Part shown: positions 1 through 41,080 of the stretch, in pieces
Position numbering within the stretch: the first letter of the stretch is position 1
Layout: every line of letters starts with the position of its first letter
From: Candidatus Levyibacteriota bacterium
GTDB lineage: Bacteria; Patescibacteriota; Microgenomatia; Levybacterales; UBA12049
NCBI GenBank assembly: GCA_963722305.1
Contig: CAVRKE010000002.1
Span: 251,878 to 315,877, forward strand
Reading direction: 5' to 3'
DNA length: 64,000 bases
The notes under the pieces: generated by a model
The model's input: the letters and a program-made list of their open reading frames with translations, nothing else
Told to the model about the DNA's origin: nothing
Database searches by the model: none
Position numbers and translations under genes: made by a program

Positions 1-1017
1 TCCGTTTTTGGCCAGTTTTCCTTCAACAATCATCCTGGATAGCCTTCTGGCGATTGTCGAAAGCGTCCTTTCCAGACTTCTTATTCCGGAATCATAACCC
101 AATGGTCTAATAATTGTTGGCCAAATTGTTTCGTCAATGCTTAATTTTAGTTCCGCCAGTCCAGCTTCCTGTTTAATCCTTGGGAAGAGATAATTTTTGG
201 CGATGGTGGTTTTTTCTTCATCCGAATAAGCAGGCATTTGAATAATTTCCATCCTGTCTAAAACGGCTGTTGAAAGATTAGTCGTATTGTTTGCCGTGGC
301 AATAAACAGCACATGGGAAAGATCAAAAGGATAATCAATGTAATGGTCGGTGAATTCCTTATTTTGTTCCGGGTCCAAAAGCTCAATCAGGACTCCCATG
401 ATATCCGCCCTGGCGTCTTCGGCAACCCTGTCCAATTCATCCAGAAGAATGACACAATTTTTACTCTCTGCACGGACAAGCTTTTTGATAACTTGCCCCG
501 GTTCCGCATCGGGAAAAACCCTTGACTGTCCTCTTAAAGCCAGTGAGTCGCCCATTCCGCCAAGAGGTATTCTTTCAAACTTTCTACCCAGTGCTTCGGC
601 AATTGAGATTGCCAGAGAAGTTTTTCCCGTTCCCACTAAACCAACCAGACAAAGAACAGGTGCTCTCAGCTCACCGGTCGAAGATTCCTGCATACTTAAA
701 ATAATTGCCGATAAATATTCCAAAATGGTATTTTTAACATTTTCCAACCCGTAATGATTTTTGTCCAGAATCTGTTTTACTTGACTTAAATCCATCACTT
801 CTTGAGTTTCTTTATTAAAAGGAAGCGCCAAAACCCAATCTATATAATTTTCAATACTTTCATAATTAACAAAACTGCCGGTTCCGGTCTTAAGACCTGT
901 TTTAAGAATAGTCAACATTATCGTTATCTTCTCCAATAAATCCGGCGGAAGGCTGGCAGTTCTTACTTTTTCTTCTAATTTTTGTATTTGTGAATCAACC
1001 GAAAGGGCAGGATCCAT
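1..1017 (-). CDS. lon: Lon-like ATP-dependent protease, AAA+ region (partial; C-terminus lies beyond the window edge). Short form with no large N-domain.
   Basis: Minus-strand ORF not in the ORF track because it runs off the window. Translation from the ATG at 1015-1017: MDPALSVDSQIQKLEEKVRTASLPP...DHYGLENVKNTILEYLSAIIL...LCLVGLVGTGKTSLAISIAEALGRKFERIPLGG. The Walker A motif and the Lon-specific DHYGL...VK motif are both present. Confidence 0.7.
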   Translation of the reverse strand, partial: MDPALSVDSQIQKLEEKVRTASLPPDLLEKITIMLTILKTGLKTGTGSFVNYESIENYIDWVLALPFNKETQEVMDLSQVKQILDKNHYGLENVKNTILEYLSAIILSMQESSTGELRAPVLCLVGLVGTGKTSLAISIAEALGRKFERIPLGGMGDSLALRGQSRVFPDAEPGQVIKKLVRAESKNCVILLDELDRVAEDARADIMGVLIELLDPEQNKEFTDHYIDYPFDLSHVLFIATANNTTNLSTAVLDRMEIIQMPAYSDEEKTTIAKNYLFPRIKQEAGLAELKLSIDETIWPTIIRPLGYDSGIRSLERTLSTIARRLSRMIVEGKLAKNG

Positions 1018-1065
1018 ACTTATATGATAGCAGATTTAAACATTAATAAGATACCAAATGGTGGT

Positions 1066-3360
1066 TTAATAGCGGGGCTTGCGGTCGCGGCTATAGCCTG
1101 ACCTTGTGCCGGTTCTGTTTCTCCAATCGCCTGTTCCCGAAACTATTCTCTCACGCCTGAATTGTTTTGCCAACGGATGTTCGCTTGGTGTTCGGGGCTG
1201 ATAAGTACCGCCGCCGACTGGCGCTCCGATTGATCGTGGTGCTTTTGGCTTGTCCGCATCTTCGCCGAAAAGCATCGAGAGATTGATTCTTCCTTGCTCG
1301 TCAATTTCTACCACTCTGACTTTAACTTTTTGTCCGATTTGTACAACGTCGTTTGGATCTTTGACAAACTCGGTCGACATCTTGGAAACGTGCACCATTC
1401 CTTCTTTGCCGGGTAAAATCTCGACAAATGCTCCGAAAGGAAGAATTCTTTTTACTTCACCTTCAAAAGTCTCGCCGGGCTGGACCTCGCGAACAAGACC
1501 CGTTACCCAATCAACCGCTTTTTTAACCGCTTCTTCCTCTGTTCCGGAAATAGCAATTGTGCCATCGTCCTCAACATCAACCTGTGCACCTGTCGTCGCA
1601 ATAATATTTTTGATTACTTTTCCACCCGGTCCGATTACTTCGCCGATTTTGTCAACCGGAATCTTGACCAGCTCAATCTTTGGCGCGTATTGTGAAATTG
1701 AAGCACGCGGTTTGGGCATCGCCGTTTTGATTACTTCCAGAATTTGCAGCCTTGCCTCTTTCGCCCTTTGCAGAATTGCTTTAATTTGTTCAACCGCCAG
1801 CCCTGGAATTTTAACGTCCAACTGAATTGCGGTCACTCCCTCATCTGTTCCGGCCACTTTAAAGTCCATGTCTCCGGAAAAATCTTCCAGACCGATAATG
1901 TCAGTCAAAAGTTCGTAACGTTTTTCATCCGACATCATGCCAATGGAAATTCCGGCCACCGGCTTAACAATTGGCACACCGGCGTCCATTAAAGCCAAGG
2001 TTGAACCGCAGGTTGAAGCCATTGAACTTGAACCGTTTTGCGATAAAACTTCCGAAACAACCCTGATGGTGTAAGGAAAAACTTCCTGCTTTGGAATTAC
2101 CGCTAAAAGGGCTCTTTCCGCCAGCGCCCCATGCCCGATTTCCCGTCTCGATGGCGTTCCGACTCTTCCGGTTTGGCCGAATGAATACGGCAATCCCGAA
2201 TAGTGGTGGATGTAGCGTTTTGTTTCTTCGCCTTCTGCGGATTCAATGAGCTGTTCCATGCGTGGAGAGCCTAAAGTCACAATTGATAAAGCTTGTGTAA
2301 TGCCTCGTTGAAAAATTGCCGACCCGTGAGTCCTTGGTAAAATCCCAACCGATGCACTAATCTCTCTAATTTCGTCTAATTTCCTCCCGTCGGCTCTTTT
2401 CTTTTTGTCCAAAACGTCCAGGCGGATTATTTTGTACATCACTTTTTCCAGCGCTTGTAAAATTATTTTTTTATCCAATTCGTTACCGGGATTGCCGATT
2501 TTATAATCTTCATATATTTTTGTCACCAACTCTTCCGTATCGTCTCCGCCCGATTCTTTGTTCGCTCTTCCCACGATTAAAGCTTTGATGTCTTCCTTGT
2601 AGGTTTTTTCAATTATGGCAATTGCTTCGTGTACTAGCGGCTCGTCCGGAACTTCCAGTTTTTTTTGTCCGGCTTTCTTTATCAAATCTTCAATCAGGCC
2701 GATTATCTTTTTGGTTTCAACGTGCGCTTTTTCCACCGACTCAACCAGAACTTCTTCGCTGACCTGACTAGCTCCTGCTTCAATCATCACGGTCTTATCT
2801 TTTGATTGGGAAACAATAATATCCAAAGCCGAGAGCTCCGCTTCGGCGCTTGATGGATTAACAATAAATTCGGCGCCTGAACCATTTTCTTTAACGTAAC
2901 CCATGCGCACCGCAGCGATTGGACCATTCCAGGGAATTCGCGAAATTGCCAAAGCTGCCGAAACCGCATTCAGGGCTAAAATATCAGGTTCTGTTTCTCC
3001 GTCAACCGAGAGAACGGTGATGATTACCTGAACTTCATTTTTGAAAGCTTTTGGAAAAAGTGGCCTAATTGACCTGTCAATGACTCTTCCCGCCAAAATC
3101 GCCTCATCCGACGGCCGGCCTTCTCTTTTAACCCATCTTGAACCTTTTATCTTTCCGCCGGCATAAAGCCTTTCACCATATTCGACCGATAAGGGAAAAT
3201 AATCCAGTTCTGTTTTACCGCCTTCAACTACGGTGACTAAAACGACTGTTTCTCCAAGCCGCGCCAAAACAGAAGCTGTCGCTTGTAAGGCTAATTCACC
3301 TGTCTCGAGCGTTAATGTCTTGCCCGCAAATTCTAAACTGACCGAGGTTTTTTTCATCAA
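1066..3360 (-). CDS. pnp: Polyribonucleotide nucleotidyltransferase (PNPase)
   Basis: 764 aa. Two RNase PH domains plus KH and S1 domains; full-length similarity to PNPase. Confidence 0.95.
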   Translation of the reverse strand: MMKKTSVSLEFAGKTLTLETGELALQATASVLARLGETVVLVTVVEGGKTELDYFPLSVEYGERLYAGGKIKGSRWVKREGRPSDEAILAGRVIDRSIRPLFPKAFKNEVQVIITVLSVDGETEPDILALNAVSAALAISRIPWNGPIAAVRMGYVKENGSGAEFIVNPSSAEAELSALDIIVSQSKDKTVMIEAGASQVSEEVLVESVEKAHVETKKIIGLIEDLIKKAGQKKLEVPDEPLVHEAIAIIEKTYKEDIKALIVGRANKESGGDDTEELVTKIYEDYKIGNPGNELDKKIILQALEKVMYKIIRLDVLDKKKRADGRKLDEIREISASVGILPRTHGSAIFQRGITQALSIVTLGSPRMEQLIESAEGEETKRYIHHYSGLPYSFGQTGRVGTPSRREIGHGALAERALLAVIPKQEVFPYTIRVVSEVLSQNGSSSMASTCGSTLALMDAGVPIVKPVAGISIGMMSDEKRYELLTDIIGLEDFSGDMDFKVAGTDEGVTAIQLDVKIPGLAVEQIKAILQRAKEARLQILEVIKTAMPKPRASISQYAPKIELVKIPVDKIGEVIGPGGKVIKNIIATTGAQVDVEDDGTIAISGTEEEAVKKAVDWVTGLVREVQPGETFEGEVKRILPFGAFVEILPGKEGMVHVSKMSTEFVKDPNDVVQIGQKVKVRVVEIDEQGRINLSMLFGEDADKPKAPRSIGAPVGGGTYQPRTPSEHPLAKQFRRERIVSGTGDWRNRTGTRSGYSRDRKPRY

Positions 3361-3371
3361 ATATTTATTAA

Positions 3372-3641
3372 TTAATCTTTCAATCCAACTCTTTTTGCAA
3401 TCGTGGAGGACCTGCCTTTATCCACTTTCTCTAAAAAGTTAAGGAGTCTTCTTCTTTTGGCAATCATTGATAACAGTCCGCGCCTGGAATGATTGTCATG
3501 CGCGTGGGCTTTTAAATGTTCTGTTAATCTTTCAATCCGGTAAGTTAACAATGCCACCTGCACCTCAGGACTACCGGTATCTCCTTGAACGGTTTGGAAT
3601 TCTTTAATTATATCTTTTTTCTGGGAAGGACTCAGTGGCAT
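3372..3641 (-). CDS. rpsO: 30S ribosomal protein S15
   Basis: 89 aa. The conserved S15 sequence (…[26 protein letters not shown]…) is present. It sits immediately upstream of pnp, as in canonical operons. Confidence 0.95.
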
Positions 3642-7710: not shown

Positions 7711-8202
7711 TTATTTCGTGCCAGACGAAGAAGGCAGAGAAGTTTTAGTTTGCACTGGAGACGGTGGACACGCGTTCGTTCCTACGTAGGTCGGACAAGC
7801 TATTCCGGATTTTGGTATACAAGTTGGCCTGGGTGTGCAAGTTAGCTTTGGTGTTAACGTCGGTTTTGGTGTTGGAATTGGGGTTGGACAAACAATTTTA
7901 GCCACGTACTTGACGGTACTTAACATTGTTTGTGTTGCGCACATTGCTCCCCAAGTTTTTGCGTTAGTGCCGTTTTGTTGCAAAATTATGGCCACGCTTC
8001 CTTTTGTAAGCTGAACACAGGTTGCGCAAGTTAAGGAAGATGGAACAGGACCGGTAGTTGTGCCCAAAACTACGTTCTCCGAATTTGGATTAACGGACTT
8101 AAAAATGAATAAAGACAACAGAGAAACAATCACCAGCAAAACAATGACTGTCAGAAGAAGATACTTGATGACGTTTTTTTCTCGCGACGTTCTTTTTGCC
8201 AT
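7711..8202 (-). CDS. Hypothetical membrane-anchored Cys/Pro/Thr-rich protein
   Basis: 163 aa. One N-terminal TM helix, then an extracytoplasmic part with many Cys and PTP repeats. Confidence 0.5.
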   Translation of the reverse strand: MAKRTSREKNVIKYLLLTVIVLLVIVSLLSLFIFKSVNPNSENVVLGTTTGPVPSSLTCATCVQLTKGSVAIILQQNGTNAKTWGAMCATQTMLSTVKYVAKIVCPTPIPTPKPTLTPKLTCTPRPTCIPKSGIACPTYVGTNACPPSPVQTKTSLPSSSGTK

Positions 8203-8235: not shown

Positions 8236-10623
8236 TCAAGCTGCAGGCGCCTTGCTTAGGAAAATATTATCAACTTCGTCAACCGAAAGCAAAACTTTGT
8301 CTCCCCTTTTTATTTCATCTTTAAGCATTGCTTGGGCAATCAAATCCTCAATTTTATCCTGAATAAAGCGCCTGAGCGGCCTTGCTCCAAAATCCTTATC
8401 AAAACCCTCAAGTGCCACTTTTGCAACCACCTTCTCATCGAAAGAAACCGTGATGTCTTTTTCGGCCAGGGTTTTAATTACCTCCGCTAATAATAGTTTA
8501 GCTATTTGCACTATTTCTGCTTGACCAAGGGGCTTAAAAGTAATAATGTCGTCGAAACGGTTTAGGAGTTCGGGCTTAAAGATTTCGTTTGTCTCCAGAA
8601 AATTCATCAAAGCCCCTTGGAATTTTTTGTCGACCGGCAGACCTTTACCGACTTCTTCCCGAATAAATTCCGAAGCGGCATTCGAGGTTGCAATCACAAT
8701 GCAGTTGGCAAAAGAAACGGTCTTACCTTTGTTATCGGTCAATCTTCCGTCATCAAGAACCTGCAAAAAAAGATCAAGAATTTTTTGATCGGCTTTTTCA
8801 AATTCGTCTAAAAGGACCAGCGAGTTGGGACTATCAAAGACAGCTTCCGTTAACTGTCCTTTTTCGTCTCCCTCACCCGGACCGGAGCCTAAAAGCCTCT
8901 TTAGTCCTTCATCACCAACGAATTCACTCATGTCAAGCCTAATAAACCTGGCACTCACTCCAAAATACACTTGGGCTAAAGCCTTAGCGGTTTCGGTTTT
9001 ACCAACACCGGTTGGTCCCAAAAACAAAAAGGAAATTGGTTTTTCTGCGGCAGTAAGCCCTGTCCTAAGCCTTCTGATTGCTTCCGAAATTGCAAAAACC
9101 GCTTGCTCTTGGTCAACTACTCTCCTATGTATTTCGTTTTCTAAATTCAGGAGCAAACTTTTTTCAACCGCCTTTGGCTGTCCAACCGGTACTTTCGTTC
9201 TCTTCTCAATTTGGTCCAGAATATCCTGCGCCTCAACGATTCTTCCCTGATTTGAAACTTTTTTAGCATTTGCCGCGTCCTCCAAAAGAGCCACTGCTGC
9301 TCCGGGTAAAACTTTTTCTTTTACATATCTTCCGGCAAATTCATAAGCATTAAGAATGGCTTTATAGGTTAAGGTAATACCGTCCTTTTCTTCTATTAAC
9401 GACGCCTTGTCAAATAACATTTGCAAAACTTGATTCTTATCCGGTTCATTAAAATTAATAACCGCAAAGTTATCCAGCAGTGGCCTCAATGGCTCAATAA
9501 ATTTTTTGTAATTTTCCATTGTCGAAGCAGCAATTATTCTTACCGCCTTTTTTTGCAGATATGGAATTAGGGCGCCGGAGATGTCTAAATCAAAAGATGC
9601 ACTGCCAAGAATATTTTGCAATTCTGGAATATAAATAATGATGTTTCCGGCGTGAGCGATTTCCACAATTAAGGCGTTAAATCTTGCTTCAAGCTCTCCC
9701 TGATTTTGTACGCCGGCCATAAACGCATCAACCATCAACTGAAAAATCTTTTGATGATAAAGGTTATCTTTTAATTTTCCCATAAAACTTTCGATGGCCA
9801 GCTCTTTGACGACAGTTTCTTTTCCGCTTCCCGTATCTCCTATCAAAACCACACTTTTACCGCTATAGAGTGCTTCCGTCATTTGCTGATACTCACTTTC
9901 TCTTCCCATTGGCTCCCGTTTCTCGTTTAAGAATTCGTGGCTTAAATCGCGCATGTATTTCTCGGTTTCCAAAGTCCATCCGTATACCCACTCTTCAGCT
10001 ATTCCTTCACCGGCCAGAGTTAGCTCTATTTTTTTATTAGATTCCTCGCTGACAAATACCCTTTTCGTCCAAAGCAAAATATTTCTCAAGTCTTCTTGTT
10101 TAAGATTATGGTTGAATAAAATCTTTGCGGATGGCTCGATTGAAAGTAAGTATGCGGCAAAAAAATCCATGGAAGTAACATATTTTCCTCCTAACTCTTT
10201 GGCTAAATTGAACGCACTTTGCACCAGTGAATTCTTATCGGCATCAATTAAAACTATCTCTTCTTTTTTCAAATCCGCTTTATAGATGATAAATTGTATT
10301 TGGGGAAGTCTGATAAGCTCTTTTATAACCTCGGAAAGCGTTTTTTTAGCCTCCAAAATACCCAATAACTCTAACGATAACGAATCAAACGCATCGCTTA
10401 AGTTTTGTGCAACCGGAACTTTCGGCATCAGTTTTGCAATCTTAAACTTGCAAAAGATTTCAAAAATTAAAAATAAAGAAAAAAATATGGCCAAAAAGTT
10501 GGGGAAGCTTTTGTTAAAAGCCCCGATGAGCGAAAAAACCCCAAGCAATACAAACACTGCGATTCTTAACAGTTTAGCTTCAAAAGTCGTGTACTGAAAG
10601 TAAAATTTGGCAAATTCTTTCAT
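8236..10623 (-). CDS. ClpB/ClpC-like double-AAA+ ATPase with an N-terminal membrane anchor and a degenerate D1 module
   Basis: 795 aa. The N-terminus has about 3 TM segments in place of a Clp N-domain. D1 Walker A reads GDTGSGKE, with E in place of the usual T/S after the lysine, and D1 Walker B reads IPELQ, with Asp replaced by Pro. D2 is canonical: GPTGVGKTETAKALA, LLDEFEKA, IATSN, GARPLRR. No IGF/L ClpP-binding loop was seen. Confidence 0.8.
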   Translation of the reverse strand: MKEFAKFYFQYTTFEAKLLRIAVFVLLGVFSLIGAFNKSFPNFLAIFFSLFLIFEIFCKFKIAKLMPKVPVAQNLSDAFDSLSLELLGILEAKKTLSEVIKELIRLPQIQFIIYKADLKKEEIVLIDADKNSLVQSAFNLAKELGGKYVTSMDFFAAYLLSIEPSAKILFNHNLKQEDLRNILLWTKRVFVSEESNKKIELTLAGEGIAEEWVYGWTLETEKYMRDLSHEFLNEKREPMGRESEYQQMTEALYSGKSVVLIGDTGSGKETVVKELAIESFMGKLKDNLYHQKIFQLMVDAFMAGVQNQGELEARFNALIVEIAHAGNIIIYIPELQNILGSASFDLDISGALIPYLQKKAVRIIAASTMENYKKFIEPLRPLLDNFAVINFNEPDKNQVLQMLFDKASLIEEKDGITLTYKAILNAYEFAGRYVKEKVLPGAAVALLEDAANAKKVSNQGRIVEAQDILDQIEKRTKVPVGQPKAVEKSLLLNLENEIHRRVVDQEQAVFAISEAIRRLRTGLTAAEKPISFLFLGPTGVGKTETAKALAQVYFGVSARFIRLDMSEFVGDEGLKRLLGSGPGEGDEKGQLTEAVFDSPNSLVLLDEFEKADQKILDLFLQVLDDGRLTDNKGKTVSFANCIVIATSNAASEFIREEVGKGLPVDKKFQGALMNFLETNEIFKPELLNRFDDIITFKPLGQAEIVQIAKLLLAEVIKTLAEKDITVSFDEKVVAKVALEGFDKDFGARPLRRFIQDKIEDLIAQAMLKDEIKRGDKVLLSVDEVDNIFLSKAPAA

Positions 10624-10946
10624 AATTTAATAAACGGTAAGACGAAAGTTGCAAGTGGCCAAATCAGAAATCCGACAAAAATAACTATTTCGGCGAAAAT
10701 TAGGCCGGCGAGAAGAATAAAATCCGCCAGAACAAATAAGCTTTTAACCACCACTCCCATAAATATTGAAAATCCAACTAGTCCTTCACGATATTCGTTT
10801 TTCCAGGGCTTAAAAAAGGTCTTTAGCATCAAGGGTAAAGAAAAAACAACTAAAAAAGCCTTGTTTAAAGTAATAAAAAAGCTAAGCAGTGAATAAGGCG
10901 CTTCCAGATACCAAAACCTGAGAATGTAGACGGGCAGTTTAATCAT
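10620..10946 (-). CDS. Small polytopic membrane protein, translationally coupled to the ClpB-like gene (4-nt overlap)
   Basis: 108 aa. Three predicted TM helices. Its stop overlaps the start of the downstream ATPase gene. Confidence 0.5.
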   Translation of the reverse strand: MIKLPVYILRFWYLEAPYSLLSFFITLNKAFLVVFSLPLMLKTFFKPWKNEYREGLVGFSIFMGVVVKSLFVLADFILLAGLIFAEIVIFVGFLIWPLATFVLPFIKL

Positions 10947-11332: not shown

Positions 11333-12391
11333 TTATGTATAGGTTACGGAGTTATTCGACAATCCTTCTTTTAGAATGAGGTGGTCCATTGGAGAAATTA
11401 ACCCCAAAGACTTATGCACTCTTTCTGTATTGTAGAATATCAGATAATCAATCAGTTTTCCAGTAAAAAGTACGGGGTTATGGATGTATTCCAGATTATT
11501 GTCAATAAACTCTTCCTGAATGGTTCTATTGAATCTTTCCACAACCCCGTTGATTCTACAGCAGCGGGGATAGATAAATACTTGGGAGATTTGATGCTTT
11601 TTAAGATAATCCTCAAAGTCTCCCAGGAATTCAAGACCATTATCTGTTTGGACAGTCTTAATCCTGTAAGGATACACTACCTCAAGTTTCTTGAAGAAAT
11701 CTACCGTATTCTGGCTATTTAAGTGTTTGTACATTAAGGAGAAGGCAAATTTACCTTTAACATCAACTGCCTGGTAGAAGTAGTATCGAATACCATCCAC
11801 AAACCTTAAAACAGTGTCCATTTCAACATATCCTATCTTGGTAGGTTTAGGAGCATATCTTACTCTTATTCGCCTTGTTCTCTTTCTTTTAGCAAAGCCG
11901 CTACCGGGATTATGGTAAATCTTGCCTGACTGTTGAAAAAAGAAGTTATTTCTCTTGATTACCTTACCGATGGTTGATACTTCTATAGCCGGAAGTCCTT
12001 CTTTAAGACAATACTTATCTAAAAGAGGTTTAATCTTCTCTTTTCCAAGTCTTGGGTGTTTTTCCCGCAAGGATTTAACATACAAGATTACCTTTGGGTT
12101 AGTTATCATAGTTCTTCTGGTTTTAGGCGTTGTTAGTGTTGGGATTAATGAGGAAATACTATTGTGACTCTCTTTTAACCGTTTCTTCCATATCCAAATA
12201 GTATCTCTGCCAACCTTAAATGCTTCACGTGTTGTTTTCTCGCCATGTAGATCGTAGAACTCAATGATTCTAAGTCTTTCTTTAGCTATTTCATCTTTAG
12301 AGAACCTTTTAAGACTTGCTACCACTTTTTTCACCTCCTCAAGTCCTCGTATTCTACTAAAGATTGGGTATGCTCTGGCGTAATGATCCAT
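11333..12391 (-). CDS. IS481-family transposase (HTH + rve/DDE integrase)
   Basis: 352 aa. N-terminal HTH and a DDE core with the ...VQTDNGLEF... rve signature. Confidence 0.85.
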   Translation of the reverse strand: MDHYARAYPIFSRIRGLEEVKKVVASLKRFSKDEIAKERLRIIEFYDLHGEKTTREAFKVGRDTIWIWKKRLKESHNSISSLIPTLTTPKTRRTMITNPKVILYVKSLREKHPRLGKEKIKPLLDKYCLKEGLPAIEVSTIGKVIKRNNFFFQQSGKIYHNPGSGFAKRKRTRRIRVRYAPKPTKIGYVEMDTVLRFVDGIRYYFYQAVDVKGKFAFSLMYKHLNSQNTVDFFKKLEVVYPYRIKTVQTDNGLEFLGDFEDYLKKHQISQVFIYPRCCRINGVVERFNRTIQEEFIDNNLEYIHNPVLFTGKLIDYLIFYNTERVHKSLGLISPMDHLILKEGLSNNSVTYT

Positions 12392-12429
12392 AGTTACGAA
12401 ATGTCGAATATGTTTCGTAACTTATACAT
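11335..12429 (-). mobile_element. IS481-family insertion sequence, about 1.1 kb, with imperfect terminal inverted repeats
   Basis: Left inverted repeat 11335-11363: ATGTATAGGTTACGGAGTTATTCGACAAT. The reverse complement of the right inverted repeat 12400-12429 reads ATGTATAAGTTACGAAACATATTCGACATT. The element encloses an rve-type transposase gene. Confidence 0.7.
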
Positions 12430-13004
12430 TTTATTCTTTTAAACTGAAATTTTATGGCTATGGCAATTAAAGAATTAACCAAGAAAATAATTAACGGATA
12501 AGCATAAGTTTGGAAATTCCAGTCTTTTATCGTTAATAAGGTAATTAAGCCTGAAATTGCACCGACTAAAAAAGCAGGGAAGTTTTCAGTTTCAGGATAA
12601 CGATAAGCTTTATAAACAGTCGGCAGCGACGCAAACACGTCTGCGGTAATGCTAAAAAATATGGCTAAATTTCCCACTCTTGTGATATACCACAGAGCCA
12701 ATCCGACTAACGATAATGCACCGCAAATTAAATCATTTCTGGTTATCTTCCAGTATGCTCTCTTGTTAACAAAAGAGGCTATAAAAATTAATATCGGGCC
12801 AAAACCGATTAAAAAAGTTAATAATGATTGAATACCAACCCTCTGATTTACCTCCGCGGCAAAGGCAATTAAAGGACTGACCGCCCACAAAATCCAAGTG
12901 ACTTTATTCGGTTTTACACGGCCTTTGATAGTTTCCCAAACGTAATAAATAGTCGCGGCAAAATTTAAAAATAAGGCCAGCCAAACAAAATTTTCGCTAA
13001 TCAC
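12357..13004 (-). CDS. Polytopic membrane protein whose 3' end runs into the IS481 right end (C-terminus replaced by IS-derived sequence)
   Basis: 215 aa with about 6 TM helices. Codons after roughly amino acid 192 lie inside the IS inverted repeat (boundary 12429). Confidence 0.5.
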   Translation of the reverse strand: MISENFVWLALFLNFAATIYYVWETIKGRVKPNKVTWILWAVSPLIAFAAEVNQRVGIQSLLTFLIGFGPILIFIASFVNKRAYWKITRNDLICGALSLVGLALWYITRVGNLAIFFSITADVFASLPTVYKAYRYPETENFPAFLVGAISGLITLLTIKDWNFQTYAYPLIIFLVNSLIAIAIKFQFKRIKCISYETYSTFRNYGSLRQSIPNL

Positions 13005-13027: not shown

Positions 13028-13963
13028 TTAGAACCAGCCGGATTTTTTGGAGTTTTCAAATTCTTTGAGCAGTTCTTTCTGTCTACCGGAAAGGTTTTTG
13101 GGAACTGTTACCTTGATGCGAACATAATGGTCGCCGTAACCGGAGCCTCTGATTACTTTTACGCCTTTTCCCCTAAGCCTAATTAAAGTTTCGGGTTGGG
13201 TGCCCGAAGGGATTTTTATTTTCACCGGTCCCTGCACCGTTTCGACTTCAACCGTCTCCCCCAAAGCTGCCTGGGCAAAAGAAATTTCCTGATTTCCAAC
13301 AATATCATATCCTTCTCTTCGAAATCTTTTATCCGGAGTAACATCAATGACAACATCGTAATCGCCAAATCTGACTCTTGACCCGTCGTCAACTCCTGCC
13401 GGAATTTTGATTGTTTGAGTTTTGCCCGCCAAATCAACCTTCTTAGTCACACCCTTAACCGCCTCCATCAAAGAAATTGTTAATTGATAAGTCGTTCTCC
13501 TTTGTGTTCTGCCAAAAGGCGAGGCGCCACCGAAAAACTGCTCAAAAATTTCAAACGGGTCGGAAAATCCGCCAAAATCAAACCCCTGCGGTCCACCACC
13601 GCTGGTGGTATATGTATAAGTGAACGGCCCCTGGCCACCCTGAGCGCCGCCAAATCCGCCAAACGGCCCACCTGCTCCAAACGGTCCCTGGCCGCTTGGT
13701 CCGCCCTGCTCAAAAGCTGCCGCGCCAAACTGGTCATATGTTTGCCGCTTTTGTGTATCTGACAAAACTTCGTAAGCTTTATTGACTTCTTTGAACTTTT
13801 CTTCCGCGGCTTTATCACCTTTATTTCTGTCCGGATGGTACTGCAAAGCTAATTTTCGATAAGCTTTTTTTATCTCCGCTTCGCTGGCGTTTTTGGAAAC
13901 TCCCAAAATTTGGTAATAATCGTTACTTGCCATAGCCGTATTATATATTAAAAGCGCGTTCAA
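13028..13963 (-). CDS. dnaJ: J-domain co-chaperone, type II (J domain plus G/F-rich linker plus C-terminal substrate domains; no Cys-rich zinc finger). Probable start at MASNDYY, about 13933.
   Basis: The HPD motif is present (…YHPDRNKGD…). A Gly/Phe-rich region follows. No CxxCxGxG repeats are present. Last gene of the hrcA-grpE-dnaK-dnaJ operon. Confidence 0.85.
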
Positions 13964-14001: not shown

Positions 14002-15915
14002 TTAATTGACCACTTCACCTTCAACCGGTTCCTCTGCTTTTTTGTCGTCTCCCTTGGCCTGTCCGTCTTTTTCATTTTGCTCAATTTCTTCTTCCGGTTT
14101 TTGCTGGCCTTGTGGCGATCCCGCCGAACCATACATTGACTGCCCAATCTTCTGCAGTGATTCCGATAACTCTTTGGTTTTGGTTTCTAAATCTTCCTTT
14201 GAACCGGAATCAAGAACACCTTTAAGTGCCGCAATCTTGTCTTCGACCTCTTTCTTGACATCGGGTTTGACCTTATCTCCCGCATCTTTTAGTGATTTTT
14301 CGGCGGTGAAAATAAGTGAATCCGCCTGATTCTTAGCTTCGACTTTTTCTTTTTTCTCGGTGTCTTCGGCGGCGTGGGCTTCCGCTTCCTTGGTCATGCG
14401 CTCGACTTCGTCTTTGGTCAAGCCGGTTGAACCGGTGATTTTGATACTTTGTTCTTTGCCGGTCGCTTTATCAACCGCTTTCACGTTTAAAATACCGTTG
14501 GCGTCGATGTCAAAAGTCACTTCAATTTGCGGCACTCCTCTTGGCGCCGGTGGAATTCCGTCCAGTACAAACCTTCCCAATGATTTATTGTCCGAAGCCA
14601 TCGGTCTTTCACCCTGTAAAACGTTGATTTCAACTTGCGTTTGGTTATCGGCCGCGGTTGAAAAAACCTGCGATTTGGAAGTTGGAATGGTTGTATTTTT
14701 GGAAATTAATGGCGTTGAAACTGAACCCAAAGTCTCCAGTCCTAAAGTGAGAGGGGTCACGTCCAAAAGCAAAACGTCTTTGACTTCTCCGCCTAAAACC
14801 CCGCCCTGAATGGCCGCTCCAACCGCCACCACTTCGTCCGGATTAACCGACTTATTGGCTTCTTTACCGAAGAATTTGGTGACCACTTCGACCACTTTGG
14901 GCATTCTGGTCATTCCGCCGACCAACACCACCTCGTCGATGTCTTTAACCGTCGCTTTAGCATCTTTTAAGGCTTGCTCAACCGGTTTAATAGTTTTTTG
15001 AATTAACGGATCAACGATTTTCTCTAAGTTAGCCCGAGTTAAAGTCATCGTTAAATGTAAGGGCCCGTTGGCCCCCTGGGTAATAAATGGTTGGTTAATT
15101 TGCGCTTCCTGAGCGGTAGAAAGTTCAATTTTGGCTTTTTCGGCTGCTTCTCTTAAACGCTGCAAGGCTTGCGGGTCTTTTCGCAGGTCAACATTATTTT
15201 CTTTTTTGAATTCGTCGGCCAGGTAATTTAAAATTTCCTGGTCGAAATCGTCTCCGCCCAAATGCGTATCGCCATTGGTGGATTTTACTTCATAAACTCC
15301 GTCCCCAAGTTCCAGAATGGAAATGTCAAAAGTACCCCCTCCAAGGTCATAAACCGCAATGGTGTGGGCATTTTTCTTGTCCAAACCATAAGCCAGGGCG
15401 GCCGCGGTTGGTTCATTGATAATGCGCATCACTTCCAAACCGGCAATTTCCCCGGCTTGTTTGGTCGCCTGACGTTGTGAATCATCAAAATAAGCGGGAA
15501 CCGTTATTACGGCCTGGCTGACTTTTCCGCCTAAATAGGCCTCGGCATCCGATTTAATCTTCTGCAAAATCATTGCGGAAATTTCCTGAGGAGTGTAGGT
15601 TTTGCCGTTGACTTCAACATCCGCCATGCCGTCGCGGCCCGACTTGATGGAATACGGCAACCACTTAATATCGCTTTGTACCGAAGAATCCGTATATTTT
15701 CGGCCCATCAATCTTTTGATGGAGAAAATAGTTTCCTTCGGTTTTAAAACAATTTGCCTTTTGGCCACATCCCCCACCACATGAGTCACCGGGTCAACGA
15801 CTGAAGGAATTACATTTCGTCCTTCCGCCGAGTGGATAACCTTCGGGCTTCCACCTTCCATGACGGCTACACATGAGTTGGTTGTACCTAAATCAATTCC
15901 AATTATTTTTGCCAT
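14002..15915 (-). CDS. dnaK: Chaperone DnaK (Hsp70)
   Basis: 637 aa. Hsp70 signatures [16 protein letters not shown] and [10 protein letters not shown]. Confidence 0.97.
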
Positions 15916-16498: not shown

Positions 16499-17230
16499 TT
16501 ACCATCCCTGTGCGATTTCTTCAATTAAGTCTCCAAAATATCTGACGGTCGGAACTACAAAGGTGTAATTGAGTCTTGACGGTCCTAAAACTCCGATTTC
16601 ACCGGTTAAATTCATTGGCGTATGGAATTTTGTATAGACAAATCCGTACGGCCCAATCAGTTTTGGCCCTAATTCTTCGCCCAACAGAATATGAATATCA
16701 TCATCGTCAATCTGTCCCGAACATAAACCCTCAAGATAGCCTGCTTCCTCGATTACCGACAAAAGATTTCGGGTTAAATCGATATCGAAAAATTCCGGCA
16801 TGTCCAAAATATTGGCGTAACCCGAAACAAGCAAGTCGCCTACATTGGTGGTTGCAACTGCCAAAGCTTTTGTTCGCTCAGCCAAAGCCCTGGTCATTTC
16901 CTTTAAAAATTCCCTTTCTTTTTCCCTTAAATCCCAAACTTTTTCTTTTAAAGAAACTTCATCCGCCGTTGACAGCTCTTTTTCCTTCATCAGCTGCTTG
17001 ACGTAGAATTTCATTCCCGCAGGAGTCGGGATTCTTCCGGCCGAAACATGCGGTTTTTTTAAATATCCAAGCTCCGTAAGCCTGACCATTTCGTTGCGAA
17101 TGGTTGCCGGACTGGCTGATAAATTATGCTTTTTTTCCAGCGTTTCCGAGCCCACGGCTTCGGCTGTTTCGATATATTCTTCGATTAGACTTTTTAGAAT
17201 TTCAACCTGTCTGGCTGTTAAATCGTGCAT
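16499..17230 (-). CDS. hrcA: Heat-inducible transcription repressor HrcA (short form)
   Basis: 243 aa. N-terminal winged helix (…RQVEILKSLIEEY…) and an HrcA C-domain. A CIRCE operator lies upstream. Confidence 0.85.
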   Translation of the reverse strand: MHDLTARQVEILKSLIEEYIETAEAVGSETLEKKHNLSASPATIRNEMVRLTELGYLKKPHVSAGRIPTPAGMKFYVKQLMKEKELSTADEVSLKEKVWDLREKEREFLKEMTRALAERTKALAVATTNVGDLLVSGYANILDMPEFFDIDLTRNLLSVIEEAGYLEGLCSGQIDDDDIHILLGEELGPKLIGPYGFVYTKFHTPMNLTGEIGVLGPSRLNYTFVVPTVRYFGDLIEEIAQGW

Positions 17231-17283: not shown

Positions 17284-17310
17284 TTAGCAGTAATATATCA
17301 TGACTGCTAA
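17284..17310 (-). promoter_or_regulatory. CIRCE-like HrcA operator inside a sigma70 promoter
   Basis: The operator reads TTAGCAGTAATATATCATGACTGCTAA, i.e. TTAGCAGT-N11-ACTGCTAA (consensus TTAGCACTC-N9-GAGTGCTAA). On the minus strand the promoter reads TTGACA (17320-17315), a 17-nt spacer, then TATATT as the -10. Position of the -10: see note. Confidence 0.7.
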
Positions 17311-17323: not shown

Positions 17324-18199
17324 GCAATTTTTGGGTAATCCCACCCTGTTGGTACAAAATCGTTAGAATATGATTATGTACCATTTAAAACAAGTACCTA
17401 CGGATGCCCAGATTAAAAAGTTTCTCAGAAGAACTGTTTTTGGTAGAAATATCTTCTGTCCAAAGTGCAAATCCTGGAATATTGTTCGCTTTGAAAAAAG
17501 ATACAGATGTAGACAATGTCAGATTAAGTTCTCGCTGTTTTCCCATACCTGGCTTTGCAATGTGAAGATTCCTTTGCAGAGATTTTGGTTAATTCTCTGG
17601 TGCTGGACAAAACAAATGCCGGTTAAACAGACTGAAGATCTAACTTCTTTGTCTGAGAAGGGAGTCAGACATTACTTTGACTTGTTCAGAGAACAATTAC
17701 CAAGAGATCGGAGGCTTCTAGAGCATATTGTCCAGCTTGATGAGGCCTACTTTGGCAGATTTGGTAATACCGCACTTCTCATGGGAAAGGAGAGAGGAAC
17801 CAGAAAGCTTGCTTATCAAATCCTCTCCTCTGATGCCCCAGCGAAGAAAGATGCAATTGATTTTGTTAGAACTTACGTTAAACCAGAGTCTCAACTAAAT
17901 ACAGATGGCTCTACTATTTACAAAAATATTGATAAGTATTATCCTCTATTCCATATGACAGACATTCACAAGAAATTTGAGTTTACCAACACCTCTGAAA
18001 TTGAAGGAATGTTTGGCGTTTTAAGGACTTTTATCCGGAGGATGTACCACCATGTCAGTGAAGAAAAGCTTGAAGAATATGTCTGTGAATTTTACTGCAG
18101 ATTTTCCAGACCGGAAATGTTTAAATCTCCTTACCATTACTTGCAAAACACGCTACATGCTTTACCAACAGGGTAGGAGAACCCCAATTTTTAAATTGC
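17324..18199 (+). mobile_element. IS1595-family insertion sequence, about 0.88 kb, with imperfect terminal inverted repeats
   Basis: Left repeat 17324-17348 GCAATTTTTGGGTAATCCCACCCTG. Reverse complement of right repeat 18169-18199: GCAATTTAAAAATTGGGGTTCTCCTACCCTG. Encloses a zinc-ribbon DDE transposase gene. No clean target-site duplication was seen. Confidence 0.55.
17370..18176 (+). CDS. IS1595-family transposase (N-terminal zinc ribbon + DDE_Tnp_IS1595)
   Basis: 268 aa. N-terminal CPKC...CRQC ribbon, and the ...LDEAYFG... and ...NTDG... DDE-region motifs. Confidence 0.8.
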   Translation: MIMYHLKQVPTDAQIKKFLRRTVFGRNIFCPKCKSWNIVRFEKRYRCRQCQIKFSLFSHTWLCNVKIPLQRFWLILWCWTKQMPVKQTEDLTSLSEKGVRHYFDLFREQLPRDRRLLEHIVQLDEAYFGRFGNTALLMGKERGTRKLAYQILSSDAPAKKDAIDFVRTYVKPESQLNTDGSTIYKNIDKYYPLFHMTDIHKKFEFTNTSEIEGMFGVLRTFIRRMYHHVSEEKLEEYVCEFYCRFSRPEMFKSPYHYLQNTLHALPTG

Positions 18200-33979: not shown

Positions 33980-34216
33980 TAAGATCCACCTTTATTAGAA
34001 TAGGTGGTATTGCTTATGCAAAAGGTGTTTTTAAATTTAAAGCAAGAAGAGAAAGACTTATACCATTAAGCCAGGAATAGAATAGGATCTAACCTCGTCT
34101 ATCCCACGAATGCAGGAAATCCTTGTCAAAAGAGGGGCAAGACCCCTAGGATACTATCGATAAATAATCACTTCTTGTAATGATTGATTTTTCAAATTCT
34201 TTTACTATGGCAACCG

Positions 34217-34738
34217 CTATATAAATATATCAAGAACTTTATATTCCAAGTTATTTTCCTTGAATACGGTATCTATGCCTCTTTTTCTGGGACTATATTG
34301 ACTAACATGGTCTTTCCCTACGACAAGTAAAACTATTTTATCTGTTTTATTTTTTATTCTTTCATACCATATATTTTCTCTCTTATCGTTGTAATCATCT
34401 ATTAACTTTATATATGGTTCTTTTTCTTCATTGGTAAATCTAGAAGAGTTTACGATATTGAAGTATTCTACAATTTTTTCTAACTCTTCCAATCCATATT
34501 TAGATCTTTCATCAATTTCAGGTTCACACATAATATATTCAAGGCTATGCTTTACGGCTAGCTCTTTAACTATCATCCTATGATCCGGATTTTGAAAATT
34601 ATAAGTATTTACTTCTTCAGCGATGAGGGAGATTTTGAGGTCGCGAATTAATTTGTCTAGATATTGATAAAAAATCGGAGATTTTCTCGGGTCATCTCCA
34701 TATTGAATCATGTGATCGGTACCTAGTATATAAATCAT
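34217..34738 (-). CDS. Hypothetical protein
   Basis: 173 aa. Last gene of a three-ORF minus-strand unit with 34911..35213 and the small ORF 34774..34890. Confidence 0.45.
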   Translation of the reverse strand: MIYILGTDHMIQYGDDPRKSPIFYQYLDKLIRDLKISLIAEEVNTYNFQNPDHRMIVKELAVKHSLEYIMCEPEIDERSKYGLEELEKIVEYFNIVNSSRFTNEEKEPYIKLIDDYNDKRENIWYERIKNKTDKIVLLVVGKDHVSQYSPRKRGIDTVFKENNLEYKVLDIFI

Positions 34739-34773
34739 CGTCAGAAAATTGTATCGCTACGTTTCTAATAATT

Positions 34774-34890
34774 AAATTATCTTGGTGTCGATCTGTCAAA
34801 AGCCTTTATTCTTATTTTTTTACCATTAGATAATTTCCTCAAATAAGAGTGGACTTTAACAAATTTTTTGCCTCTTTGTGTTTCTGCCAT
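34774..34890 (-). CDS. Unannotated small basic protein (38 aa, MAETQRGKKFVKVHSYLRKLSNGKKIRIKAFDRSTPR) with a strong RBS
   Basis: Not in the ORF track (under 60 aa). RBS AAAGAGGAGGTGA is 8 nt upstream of the ATG at 34888-34890. It lies between two co-directional genes. Confidence 0.4.
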
Positions 34891-34910
34891 TTAATTTTTC
34901 ACCTCCTCTT

Positions 34911-35213
34911 TCATATATGCGCATACACTTCGCTCATTGCTGAATCATTTGGAGTATAAAACGGACGAATTCCTGTAAAGTTTTTATCTGTTAATTCCAT
35001 ACTTGAAATATTTTCCACGATAAAAAGCCTCCAGTTAGGGACATCATCGGGATGATTACTAAACCCGGAGATTTCCCATGCTCTCAAAAGCTCTTTATCT
35101 GAACCCCCTCTCCCATAACAAAAAGGCTCTATTAACCTTTCTCCTATTTCGTCCTTATAGCGAATGCTTACTATTGTTTTTGCTTGAATTGCTTGAGTTA
35201 ATGTTGAATTCAT
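34911..35213 (-). CDS. Small WYL-like domain protein (tentative)
   Basis: 100 aa. …IGERLIEPFCYG…WRLFIVENISSMELTDKNF… resembles the WYL ligand-binding beta-barrel signature (W-Y/R-L…R.F.ldRI). Assigned by pattern only. Confidence 0.35.
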   Translation of the reverse strand: MNSTLTQAIQAKTIVSIRYKDEIGERLIEPFCYGRGGSDKELLRAWEISGFSNHPDDVPNWRLFIVENISSMELTDKNFTGIRPFYTPNDSAMSEVYAHI

Positions 35214-35376
35214 AATCTATCACCTTAATTCCGGCACATAGTTAAAACTATACATCTAGTGCCACCAAAATAATATGGCACTATATCTACCCTGTCAACT
35301 ATTAACATCTATATCAAATTAGGTCAACATTATTTTTAGCTTCGGTTTGTGGCTAAGAAATCAATCGCTATAGTAT

Positions 35377-36132
35377 TTACATTCCTGAATATGGAGAAAC
35401 ATCAATTACAACACTACCAAGATCTTTATAATAATTCATCTTAACCTCTTTATTGCCCGTTATCTGTGAATCCTTTGTTTCTGTCCCATTGGAAAAAAGG
35501 ACAATCGTTTCATCAACCCAAGTTGTCCCATCACTCCAGTCAGGAGCAGCATTTTGAATAAATTGATGTGCTAAAACCAAAGCACTTTGATTTTCTGAGT
35601 TATGTTGACTTGCAATAAACATTAATTCGACATCAGATAAATTTGTTTTATTACCTATTAATTGTAAATTAGTATTGGCTGTATAGTCCGTTCCTACATA
35701 GTTTGGCTGACCCTTCACATCAACTCCTTGTTTCATTGTAAAAGAATCGCTTAATCCGACCATCATGTCATCATAGGAAACGCCTAGTGTTGGAACAGGC
35801 GTAGGACTTGAAGCGTTAGTTGGAGTCGCCTTTATTTTATTTGTTGGCGCTATGGTTGGTGTTTGCGTTGGTTGCGGAGTTGGCGTTGCGGTGACCTTAG
35901 CAAGGTTACCGGAATTGGTTTGTTGATTAGAAGGGCTATTTGAACCCGATGATGCTAAACTACTTATGATAAGGATTAAGAATAATATCGTAACTCCCCA
36001 TTTTAAGTACTTATTCCAATTGCTATATTTCCACATTAAGAATAATCCAACGGGAAAAAATAAGACAAGAAGTATTACTATCCAGATAGTCTTTGAGTGC
36101 CATTTTGAGCTTACCGTATTGTCTGATTCCAT
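35377..36132 (-). CDS. Membrane-anchored secreted hypothetical protein
   Basis: 251 aa. N-terminal TM helices, a Thr/Pro-rich linker and a C-terminal globular part. TTGACT-N17-TATATA promoter upstream. Confidence 0.5.
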   Translation of the reverse strand: MESDNTVSSKWHSKTIWIVILLVLFFPVGLFLMWKYSNWNKYLKWGVTILFLILIISSLASSGSNSPSNQQTNSGNLAKVTATPTPQPTQTPTIAPTNKIKATPTNASSPTPVPTLGVSYDDMMVGLSDSFTMKQGVDVKGQPNYVGTDYTANTNLQLIGNKTNLSDVELMFIASQHNSENQSALVLAHQFIQNAAPDWSDGTTWVDETIVLFSNGTETKDSQITGNKEVKMNYYKDLGSVVIDVSPYSGM

Positions 36133-36201
36133 AAGGATATAAATTCTGATTTGTATATATACCCAAATTAGAAGAAAGTCAAATTATTTCTAAAAATAAA
36201 T

Positions 36202-37107
36202 TTAACCAAGAACTTGCTTTAATCCTGCTTCTAAAACTCCTTCTTTGGCCATTTTATAATTAACTATACATGGAAACTTATTAAAATAATCTTGCATTAA
36301 TGATTTAGCTGACATCCACCCAAAGCCATCAGTAAATAAAAACAATGATAATGTAAATCCCTGGCTAAAAGTTCTGTTAACATAAGCGCCAGGAACTTCT
36401 AATTTAGTGCCACCTCCTGAAAAAAAATTTGCTTCTATATCAACAAATTTACCTCCTTTATAAACAATAAAATCCATATTCCTACGTAATTCCATAGGTG
36501 GTTCCTTAAAAGATAAGTCTCTTAATACTTTCTCAAATTTTTGTCTTATTTTTACTTGATAACCATTTTTATAAGCTATTTGCATAATTAGAGGTTCTAC
36601 AAACTTTTCCCATTCAACACCACCTCTATTTTTTCTAGCATTTGTGTCCGAACCTACTTCAACACCCATATAATAATCTCTTAAATTTTTTACTTCTTTT
36701 AAAACATTTGCTAACCCTGATTTTCTCCAAAAATCAATATATTCATAAATTTCAATATCTGTTTCTGGAAGCTTTGTAAAATCAAAATTTAAATATCTTC
36801 TCGTATCAGGGTCTTCAATAATAGAAAATTTATCATCTCTTATTGCTAACAATCGAGGGAAAACTCTAATAACTTCAGGATATTTTTTAATTGTTTCGAA
36901 AAATTCCTTAACGTCTGATTGCAAAACAGCTTCTAATATTCCTAATTCTATTTTATATTTTTCTACAAAATCTAATACTTTATCCCAATCCACATAAAAA
37001 CCCCACTCTCTATTTGTTATTAGAAGTGTTGATAAAAAATATTTAACAACGTCGTTAATATCGTTAATTCCTTTTATCTTTTTATAAATATCTATGTTAT
37101 TGTTCAT
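36202..37107 (-). CDS. Type II restriction endonuclease, DpnII/MboI family (GATC-type; specificity is inferred)
   Basis: 301 aa. Blocks recalled from R.DpnII: YPEVIRVFPRLLAIRD, GVEVGSDTNARKNRGG, DFIVYKGGKFVDIEANFFSGGG and FTDGFGWMSAK. It lies directly downstream of a beta-class methyltransferase gene in the same orientation. Confidence 0.65.
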   Translation of the reverse strand: MNNNIDIYKKIKGINDINDVVKYFLSTLLITNREWGFYVDWDKVLDFVEKYKIELGILEAVLQSDVKEFFETIKKYPEVIRVFPRLLAIRDDKFSIIEDPDTRRYLNFDFTKLPETDIEIYEYIDFWRKSGLANVLKEVKNLRDYYMGVEVGSDTNARKNRGGVEWEKFVEPLIMQIAYKNGYQVKIRQKFEKVLRDLSFKEPPMELRRNMDFIVYKGGKFVDIEANFFSGGGTKLEVPGAYVNRTFSQGFTLSLFLFTDGFGWMSAKSLMQDYFNKFPCIVNYKMAKEGVLEAGLKQVLG

Positions 37108-37109
37108 TA

Positions 37110-37941: not shown

Positions 37942-37989
37942 TAAACTTGAACCAATAATAACACTTTGGGAAATTTTTGGAAAGGTATT

Positions 37990-39060: not shown

Positions 39061-39104
39061 GCTGCTCGGATTATAGTACTATGGGGAATTTTTGGAAAGC
39101 AGGG

Positions 39105-39824: not shown

Positions 39825-39939
39825 AGATCTCTCTTGTTTCTAGCTTCTTTTTTTATTAAAACACCTGATGAGAATATAGCTTTTTTAATCCAAAAATGCA
39901 ACTAATCATTTTGAATAGGAAGGATATATTTAATACTCA

Positions 39940-40041
39940 TTGACTTACTTTTAATCAGTGTTATAATCGATTCATGAGGTGAATCTGCATCGCAAGGTGT
40001 AGACCACTTCTCCAAAGAAAACTAGTTCGCTAGTTTTTTTT
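39940..40041 (+). ncRNA. Candidate small transcription unit (promoter + about 65-nt RNA + terminator), antisense/adjacent to the DUF3800 3' end
   Basis: TTGACT (39940-39945), 16 nt, TATAAT (39962-39967), then ...AAAACTAG-TTCG-CTAGTTTTTTTT at 40017-40041. The only ORF inside is ATGAGGTGA. Confidence 0.25.
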
Positions 40042-40042
40042 G

Positions 40043-40921: not shown

Positions 40922-41027
40922 CTAAGATTGCACAATGTATATCGTGCCTCGCGTCGCACAAGATTTGCTTTACGTCAAAACGTAATTGAAACTTTTATCG
41001 GTATAATATTTGAGGCTAGAATATGGT

Positions 41028-41052: not shown

Positions 41053-41080
41053 ACCCCCCGTATATGTAATATATGGATAG

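Follow-up and report, generated by a model that had tools for sequence, protein, structure and literature searches.

A membrane-anchored Clp/Hsp100 ATPase with a degenerate D1 ring and a coupled small membrane protein in Levybacteria

The ATPase and its membrane partner

We analysed a 64,000-nucleotide (nt) stretch of the genome of a Candidatus Levyibacteriota bacterium (assembly GCA_963722305.1, contig CAVRKE010000002.1, positions 251,878 to 315,877; hereafter referred to as the window), and focused on two overlapping minus-strand genes, which encode a membrane protein of 108 amino acids (aa; hereafter the partner) and a Clp/Hsp100 ATPase with two AAA+ modules (D1 and D2). The ATPase carries an N-terminal transmembrane (TM) hairpin, and its sequence points to a motor that has kept the ATPase residues of D2 and lost the pore tyrosines of both rings. 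The coordinates of all parts were checked by re-translation and are given below, with the basis of each assignment in brackets.

10620..10946, minus strand: gene of the small membrane partner, 108 aa (open reading frame (ORF), hydropathy, conservation in 112 homologues, alignment)
10779..10823, minus strand: partner loop KTFFKPWKNEYREGL, residues 42-56, conserved more strongly than any other element of the module (conservation, alignment)
10620..10623, minus strand: ATGA junction, at which the partner stop codon overlaps the ATPase start codon, as in translational coupling (re-read sequence)
8236..10623, minus strand: gene of the Clp/Hsp100 class 1 ATPase, 795 aa, stop codon included in the coordinates (ORF, profile matches, AlphaFold2 (AF2) model, Foldseek)
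10429..10623, minus strand: ATPase residues 1-65, amphipathic helix (2-12) and TM hairpin (14-36, 43-62) (hydropathy, AF2 model)
10027..10428, minus strand: residues 66-199, divergent Clp N-domain fold, predicted (AF2 model, Foldseek, Clp_N in relatives)
9919..10026, minus strand: residues 200-235, family signature linker GEGIAEEWVYGWTLETEKY (alignment, AF2 model)
9184..9918, minus strand: residues 236-480, D1 AAA+ module without M-domain insertion, catalytically degenerate (alignment)
9817..9840, minus strand: D1 Walker A, GDTGSGKE against canonical GEPGVGKT, with Thr changed to Glu and the Gly and Lys kept (alignment)
9697..9711, minus strand: D1 pore-loop position, VQNQG against AKYRG, KYR changed to QNQ and thus Tyr to Asn (alignment)
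9616..9642, minus strand: D1 Walker B, IIIYIPELQ against canonical IDELH, with Asp changed to Pro (alignment)
9469..9474, minus strand: D1 arginine-finger position, DN against RR (alignment)
Within D1: sensor 2, LPGAAVAL against canonical LPDKAIDL (alignment)
8239..9183, minus strand: residues 481-795, D2 AAA+ module and D2-small domain (profiles, conservation)
8995..9018, minus strand: D2 Walker A, GPTGVGKT, canonical (alignment)
8857..8889, minus strand: D2 pore loop, GSGPGEGDEKG against GSPPGYVGYDEGG (alignment)
8791..8820, minus strand: D2 Walker B, LVLLDEFEKA, canonical (alignment)
8557..8559, minus strand: D2 arginine finger R689 (in NRFD), invariant in 112/112 homologues (alignment)

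The ATPase was assigned to class 1 of the Clp/Hsp100 family by its tandem pair of AAA+ modules, D1 being followed by AAA_lid_9 and D2 containing both AAA_2 and ClpB_D2-small (Pfam, 6.7e-07, 1.9e-43, and 1e-22, respectively). The best PDB match by phmmer was ClpC (3e-102), and the full-length AF2 model (predicted local distance difference test (pLDDT) score, 81.9) gave ClpC, ClpB, and ClpA as top Foldseek matches. None of the matching NCBIfam models reached its cut-off, including those of ClpB (TIGR03346, 436.4 vs. 1232.1 bits), ClpA (TIGR02639, 388.1 vs. 993.15 bits), and ClpV/TssH (TIGR03345, 330.5 vs. 884.95 bits), and the ClpG and ClpK models also fell far under theirs. ClpV/TssH identity was rejected on its sub-cut-off score and because the gene neighbours are dnaKJ and nusA-infB, not type VI secretion genes. 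The ClpA models covered residues 239-786 in one unbroken stretch whereas the ClpB models broke in two, which indicates that there is no M-domain; moreover, the sensor-2 helix LPGAAVALLEDAANA passes directly into the D1-D2 linker, and no long coiled coil was present in the full-length model. On this alignment evidence the architecture is ClpA-like, and the description as ClpB-like in the initial annotation was not sustained. From the N-terminus, the domain order is an amphipathic helix, two TM helices, the predicted divergent Clp N-domain, an acidic-aromatic linker, D1, and D2.

We then compared the motifs residue by residue by alignment to B. subtilis ClpC. In D1, the Thr of Walker A, the Asp of Walker B, and the two arginine fingers are all missing and sensor 2 is not canonical; judging by these positions, D1 is catalytically dead. 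The degenerate D1 motifs pointed out in the initial annotation (GKE and IPELQ) were thus recovered, and its caveat that they might reflect sequence errors was also addressed: the substitutions are not sequencing errors, because they are shared by 112 full-length homologues (at least 112 were found, with 55-76% identity and all of ~790 aa), in which the Walker B Pro and the P-loop Lys are present in 112/112 and GKE in 97/112.

By contrast with D1, the D2 module reads as a working ATPase, in which sensor 1 (TSN) and sensor 2 (GARPLRR) are canonical, as are the Walker motifs, and the catalytic residues are invariant among the 112 homologues. It is also the best-conserved region of the ATPase (78% mean identity, 41% invariant columns). 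The claim of a fully canonical D2 was therefore correct for the ATPase motifs and failed for the pore loop, where GYVGY is replaced by GEG-D, which is two residues shorter and contains no aromatic residue. The aromatic pore-loop signature of Clp/Hsp100 proteins (KYR in D1, GYVG in D2) is thus missing from both rings, with QNQ and GEG in its place, and no aromatic residue was found at either pore tyrosine position among the commonest residues tabulated in the 112 homologues. A ClpP-docking loop of the form [LIV]-G-[FL] was likewise not found in the ATPase, as had been noted before; the aligned stretch is EEVGKGLPVDKK, with GKGLPV at the VGF position, and the first position of the loop is Lys in 93 of the 112 homologues. 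Public records name the protein 'ATP-dependent Clp protease ATP-binding subunit ClpC', a label that the motif evidence contradicts.

Membrane anchoring, which had been proposed with about three TM helices, was supported by hydropathy and the AF2 model, both of which gave two TM helices preceded by an amphipathic helix. Lys and Arg residues flank the hairpin on both cytoplasmic sides, which suggests an N-in, C-in topology. The TM region is the least conserved part of the ATPase among the 112 homologues, with R20, E55, and K61 nearly invariant in residues 1-65 and E55 situated in TM2. The following residues were predicted to adopt a Clp N-domain fold: residues 78-190 are all-helical, and a second AF2 model, limited to residues 66-240 (pLDDT 77), was matched by Foldseek, among the PDB matches listed, to Clp N-domains or their stand-alone homologues in 50 of 50 cases (ClpV, ClpA, ClpC, Hsp104, HSP101, ClpB, ClpT2, and ClpC2), each match being individually weak (E-values 0.02-0.5; probabilities mostly 0.8-1.0). 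Profile searches with Pfam, NCBIfam, and PDB models did not find Clp_N in this ATPase, residues 66-240 included; two TM-anchored relatives (P0343 and P0322) exceeded the Pfam Clp_N threshold at the corresponding position. The models thus suggest that the hairpin was added ahead of a divergent N-domain and not in its place. The initial annotation had held the N-domain to be replaced and had named a canonical one, detected by profile search, as the refuting observation; such a domain was detected in the relatives and not in this ATPase.

The 36-residue linker between the N-domain and D1 is acidic and aromatic, and is second only to D2 in conservation (70% identity, 36% invariant columns), with residues 205-223 nearly invariant (G-E-G-I-A-E-x-W-V-Y-G-W-T-x-E-T-x-K-Y). 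Residues 200-213 had a pLDDT <50 in the monomer model, and a conserved linker whose first part is modelled with such low confidence fits the pattern expected of an interface motif. The partner contains approximately three hydrophobic segments by hydropathy, and its invariant elements in the 112 homologues are FWYLEAP, SLNKAF, KTFFxPWKNEYREGL, K68, D75, E86, and P97, of which K68, D75, and E86 lie within the hydrophobic segments. No relatives of the partner were found in Pfam, NCBIfam, PADLOC, or PDB.

Breadth of the gene pair and of the ATPase family

In the window, the partner TGA falls inside the ATPase ATG, producing the 4-nt overlap (ATGA) that had been reported in the initial annotation together with a coupling of the ATPase to a small membrane protein. 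A genome scan with a single protein as query returned only four loci, all from Levybacteria. We also compared related loci, and found the partner directly upstream of the ATPase in all eight of the first loci whose sequence extends upstream. With the partner alone as the seed, a metagenome scan yielded 80 loci, of which 66 had >=400 nt downstream and were counted as testable. The ATPase starts <200 nt downstream of the partner in 61 of these 66, and lies downstream with a match that begins later in three more, whereas it was short or undetected in the remaining two; the partner is thus directly upstream in 64/66 testable loci overall. The same 4-nt overlap was observed in 36 of the 61 paired metagenome loci, and also in three of the related loci compared (L001, L002, and L009).

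The partner is also retained beside ATPases of only ~30% identity in unrelated gene contexts. For example, FFKPWKNEYREGLV is identical in the L090 partner, although the L090 ATPase is only ~30% identical to that of the window. The upstream protein of L091 matched the partner with an hhalign probability of 83%, whereas homology was not demonstrated for the 107-aa upstream protein of L092 (hhalign probability 3%). Moreover, a partner-like module forms the N-terminus of the ATPase itself in 17 of the 150 best representatives of the sensitive search described below (~11%), as supported by BLASTP between the stand-alone L091 partner and the fused P0368 N-terminus (E = 7e-15) and by hhalign between the partner profile and the P0390 N-terminus (probability 80%). 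These fusions imply a 1:1 unit, and would also place the partner C-terminus, and hence its invariant basic-aromatic loop, in the cytoplasm. Overall, the two genes form a translationally coupled pair that co-occurs almost without exception and is fused in some lineages.

The small partner gene is often left unannotated in public records. Public gene calls miss it at L008 7619-7996, L009 2188-2514, and L090 5628-6020, and in these three stretches a short opposite-strand ORF was called instead. For the partner of the window, a Logan assembly is the sole recorded source; the sequence is not in the NCBI/ENA record with the ATPase.

For a wider view of the ATPase, residues 1-480 were used as the query of a sensitive search against 1.84 billion cluster representatives, the best 150 of which showed 24-54% identity and almost all of which had N-terminal hydrophobic segments. 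A motif table was compiled for ~115 full-length representatives in the same identity range. In this table, the D2 Walker A, Walker B, sensor 1, and arginine finger were universal, whereas the D1 KYR loop and the canonical D2 GYVG were lost in every TM-anchored representative. No aromatic residue occurred in the D1 loop across the TM-anchored superfamily, and the D2 loop was shortened in most members and varied in both length and sequence, with F or Y retained in or near it by a minority of distant members; the three canonical, non-TM sequences of the same alignment kept GYVG, GYIG, or GFVG. The D1 arginine fingers were lost near-universally, and the ClpP loop was absent from all TM-anchored representatives. 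The D1 Walker motifs were variable, with GKT and DE still present in some lineages and the Levybacteria at the degenerate end.

The source names seen were almost all Levybacteria or 'Patescibacteria group bacterium'; one record bears the name Candidatus Sulfotelmatobacter, probably in error. Among 20 distant representatives, an organism name was obtained for two, both of them Patescibacteria. Together with the guanine-cytosine content of the window (0.40-0.46), the names of the homologues assign it to Candidatus Levybacteria, a lineage of Patescibacteria. The TM-anchored Clp ATPase is thus typical of Patescibacteria (candidate phyla radiation). The L008 contig, from a more distant relative, also encodes a canonical, Clp_N-bearing Hsp100 of 950 aa (554-3406) beside a 1039-aa S8 peptidase, 5 kb upstream of the TM-anchored Clp. 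The two forms therefore coexist in at least one lineage, and the TM form is a distinct paralogue, in agreement with the initial suggestion that it differs from housekeeping ClpB. No curated family model for the ATPase variant or its partner was found in Pfam or NCBIfam, and our literature search brought up no account of a Clp in the candidate phyla radiation that is TM-anchored or has lost its pore loops.

Gene neighbourhood

We further examined the genes surrounding the pair. On the minus strand, hrcA (16499-17230), grpE, dnaK (14002-15915), and dnaJ (13028-13963) are followed by a 215-aa multi-TM ORF, an rve-type insertion sequence (IS) transposase (11333-12391), and an 80-aa TM ORF; next come the partner, the Clp ATPase, a 163-aa Cys/Pro-rich gene, nusA, infB, and, farther on, pnp. 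The same order of hrcA-grpE-dnaK-dnaJ before the pair was seen in related loci. Among the partner-seeded loci, dnaJ was found upstream on the same strand in 26/38, often <100 nt away, and nusA downstream in 26/30; the pair is usually located after hrcA-grpE-dnaK-dnaJ. In many related contigs dnaJ is immediately 5' of the pair, unlike in the window, where the rve-family transposase (352 aa, minus strand) sits between the dnaJ-side genes and the pair, and the 215-aa membrane ORF (12357-13004) overlaps at its 3' end with the transposase start.

The Cys-rich membrane protein that the initial annotation placed after the ATPase does exist (163 aa, 7711-8202, minus strand; one N-terminal TM helix, 8 Cys, 17 Pro, and 25 Thr), and is probably a surface protein. 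It is preceded by its own strong promoter-like site (11/12 sigma-70-like match at 8239-8210), which was the exception in a promoter and terminator scan around the pair that otherwise did not rise above shuffled expectation. None of the nine related loci used for comparison (L001-L009) contained this gene, either of the 80-aa and 215-aa ORFs, or the IS element, and all four were excluded from the module.

A diverged CIRCE-like palindrome (TTAGCAGTA-N9-TGACTGCTAA, 3 mismatches) was located at 17284-17310, upstream of hrcA and adjoining an IS1595-type transposase (17370-18176, plus strand). The search for CIRCE returned this one diverged site and none before the partner/Clp pair. The groES-groEL genes lie at the window end (62000-63995, minus strand), and their upstream region, the expected place of a second CIRCE, runs off the window. 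Just after pnp, two Levybacteria relatives (L001 16828-17886; L002 17340-18376) encode an AAA + Lon_lid protein of ~352 aa with no protease domain recorded, which may be another reduced proteostasis ATPase. Elsewhere in the window, a stretch of low guanine-cytosine content at 34000-46000 (0.31-0.36 vs. 0.40-0.46 elsewhere) represents a defence or mobile island, including a DpnII endonuclease with an N6/N4 methylase, a NERD nuclease, DUF3800, two AAA_14+DUF4143 ATPases, and an AbiEii toxin.

Comparison with known machines and proposed mechanism

ClpC, ClpB, and ClpA are the closest sequence and structure matches of the ATPase, and share with it the N-domain fold (predicted here), two AAA+ modules, AAA_lid_9, AAA_2, ClpB_D2-small, and identical D2 ATPase residues. 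ClpA likewise has no M-domain, and ClpB no ClpP loop. In contrast, the TM hairpin and the obligate membrane partner are found only here, D1 has no hydrolysis residues, and the pore tyrosines of both rings are lost; ClpB and ClpC possess an M-domain, and ClpA and ClpC an IGL/VGF loop, neither of which is present in this ATPase. FtsH resembles it in its N-in/C-in two-helix anchor before a cytoplasmic AAA+ body and in its link to heat-shock or quality-control genes, but has a single AAA module of another clade, a periplasmic domain between the two TM helices, a pore loop with an aromatic residue, and a zinc protease domain, none of which was observed here; the Pfam scan of the ATPase found neither Peptidase_M41 nor any other peptidase domain.

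Torsins are eukaryotic, membrane-associated ATPases that are closest to the D2 of Clp/Hsp100 proteins, have no aromatic pore-loop residues, and are thought not to thread. The ATPase resembles them as a membrane-associated Clp D2-type enzyme without an aromatic pore loop, and weak, sub-threshold Pfam Torsin matches were seen on D2 of its relatives. Torsins form a single ring and have no arginine finger, which is supplied by LAP1 or LULL1; here, by contrast, the D2 arginine finger R689 is invariant, and the protein also has a dead D1 ring and a predicted N-domain. The D2 ring of NSF and the D1 rings of Pex1/Pex6 have kept the P-loop, lost hydrolysis, and taken on an assembly role, leaving the other ring as the motor. 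By analogy, D1 of the present ATPase may be such a non-hydrolysing structural ring; the active ring of those proteins, however, keeps aromatic pore loops and threads, whereas D2 here has no aromatic loop.

Taken together, these findings favour, with a probability that we put at about 0.55, a two-component, membrane-embedded, D2-driven derivative of Hsp100 that is tied to the heat-shock network and does not perform canonical threading. In this proposal, the ATPase would assemble into a hexamer, as expected for its family, and its own hairpins, together with the partner at a 1:1 ratio, would fix it in the membrane. D1 would act as a structural ring, at most binding nucleotide, with D2 as the sole motor, and the cytoplasmic partner loop KTFFxPWKNEYREG would dock on the ATPase, possibly on the linker GEGIAEEWVYGW. 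ATP hydrolysis would then remodel the membrane module, or clients bound to the N-domain or linker, and the machine would act in membrane-proximal protein quality control within the heat-shock set. Processive threading by tyrosine paddles, hand-over to ClpP, and M-domain coupling to DnaK would not be part of its output. Canonical threading appears improbable because the D2 loop, being non-aromatic and variable in length, is unlikely to be a working element, and the TM-anchored ATPase thus probably works differently from ClpB. More tentatively, as a possibility well short of an even chance, Patescibacteria might have remodelled an ancestral Clp unfoldase into a membrane-embedded machine, in which D2 hydrolysis would be relayed through the dead D1 and the linker to a membrane module formed by the partner, with its buried Lys, Asp, and Glu residues and its occasional fusion to the ATPase, in a mechanism not described for any Clp/Hsp100 protein, by which a non-threading Hsp100 would do work on or across the membrane; gating, insertion, extraction, and ion-coupled remodelling would be its candidate outputs.

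Several points weigh against the D2-driven, heat-shock-linked proposal. Hexamer formation is assumed from the family, and the evidence for docking between loop and linker consists of matching conservation and opposite charge. The dnaK/nusA neighbourhood is not universal, with a different context in L090, L091, and L092, and may reflect inherited synteny and not a functional link; in the window itself the IS element parts the pair from dnaJ, so that co-transcription with dnaKJ is not possible there. Furthermore, the missing aromatic pore loops argue against threading and do not disprove it, and a few relatives still carry F, M, or Y close to the D2 position.

These last points bear on the disaggregase or extractor for membrane proteins that the initial annotation proposed, in which D2 would translocate clients through the central pore in the manner of a protease-less FtsH or of Msp1. 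The TM anchor before a cytoplasmic AAA+ body, the intact D2 ATPase, the predicted retention of the N-domain fold, the dnaK/dnaJ linkage, and the few distant relatives with F, M, or Y close to where the D2 pore loop lies would all suit such a machine. The known threading AAA+ families, such as ClpB, Hsp104, ClpX, and FtsH, however, require an aromatic residue in the pore loop of the motor ring, and the pore-loop tyrosines of both rings are absent here and from 112/112 close homologues; the shortened and variable D2 loop, moreover, does not show the constraint expected of a substrate grip. With these tyrosines gone throughout the TM-anchored superfamily, the proposal is weakened, and we consider threading extraction unlikely.

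A membrane gate or translocation device powered by AAA+ hydrolysis, with a loose resemblance to HSP101 on the PTEX pore or to Bcs1, seems more doubtful still. Invariant charges in the hydrophobic segments of the partner (K68, D75, and E86) and in TM2 of the ATPase (E55) would fit a gate, as would the obligate and sometimes fused 1:1 unit and the conservation of the pair independently of gene context. On the other hand, the partner, a very small protein, shows no resemblance to known channels, the ring has no pore loops with which to push a polypeptide, and the dnaKJ linkage indicates quality control instead.

Two further explanations are effectively excluded. An anti-phage defence ATPase related to DolB of Dodola (ClpB-like) or to PDC-M37B was suggested by PADLOC matches (E = 1.8e-35 for DolB), but these are restricted to the D2 core common to all Clp proteins (residues ~472-660; model positions 116-290 of 375), PADLOC returned nothing for the partner, and the housekeeping synteny from dnaKJ to nusA-infB is conserved across the lineage. 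A decaying, functionless ClpC/ClpB paralogue might account for the many lost catalytic and substrate-binding residues, but not for intact ORFs of constant length (~790 aa) in >110 homologues, 41% invariant D2 columns with all D2 ATPase residues kept, conserved translational coupling, and degenerate residues that are themselves conserved (Pro in 112/112).

Hsp100/Clp proteins are the textbook case of threading by tyrosine paddles. If the proposed D2-driven machine is confirmed, the family would contain a large, conserved branch that has kept the D2 engine without the paddles, the M-domain, or the ClpP loop and has wired it to the membrane through a dedicated partner, giving the same engine a different output. 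Few other stress-related machines are recognisable in the reduced genomes of Patescibacteria, and the near-universal retention of this module in such very small genomes suggests that it may be essential.

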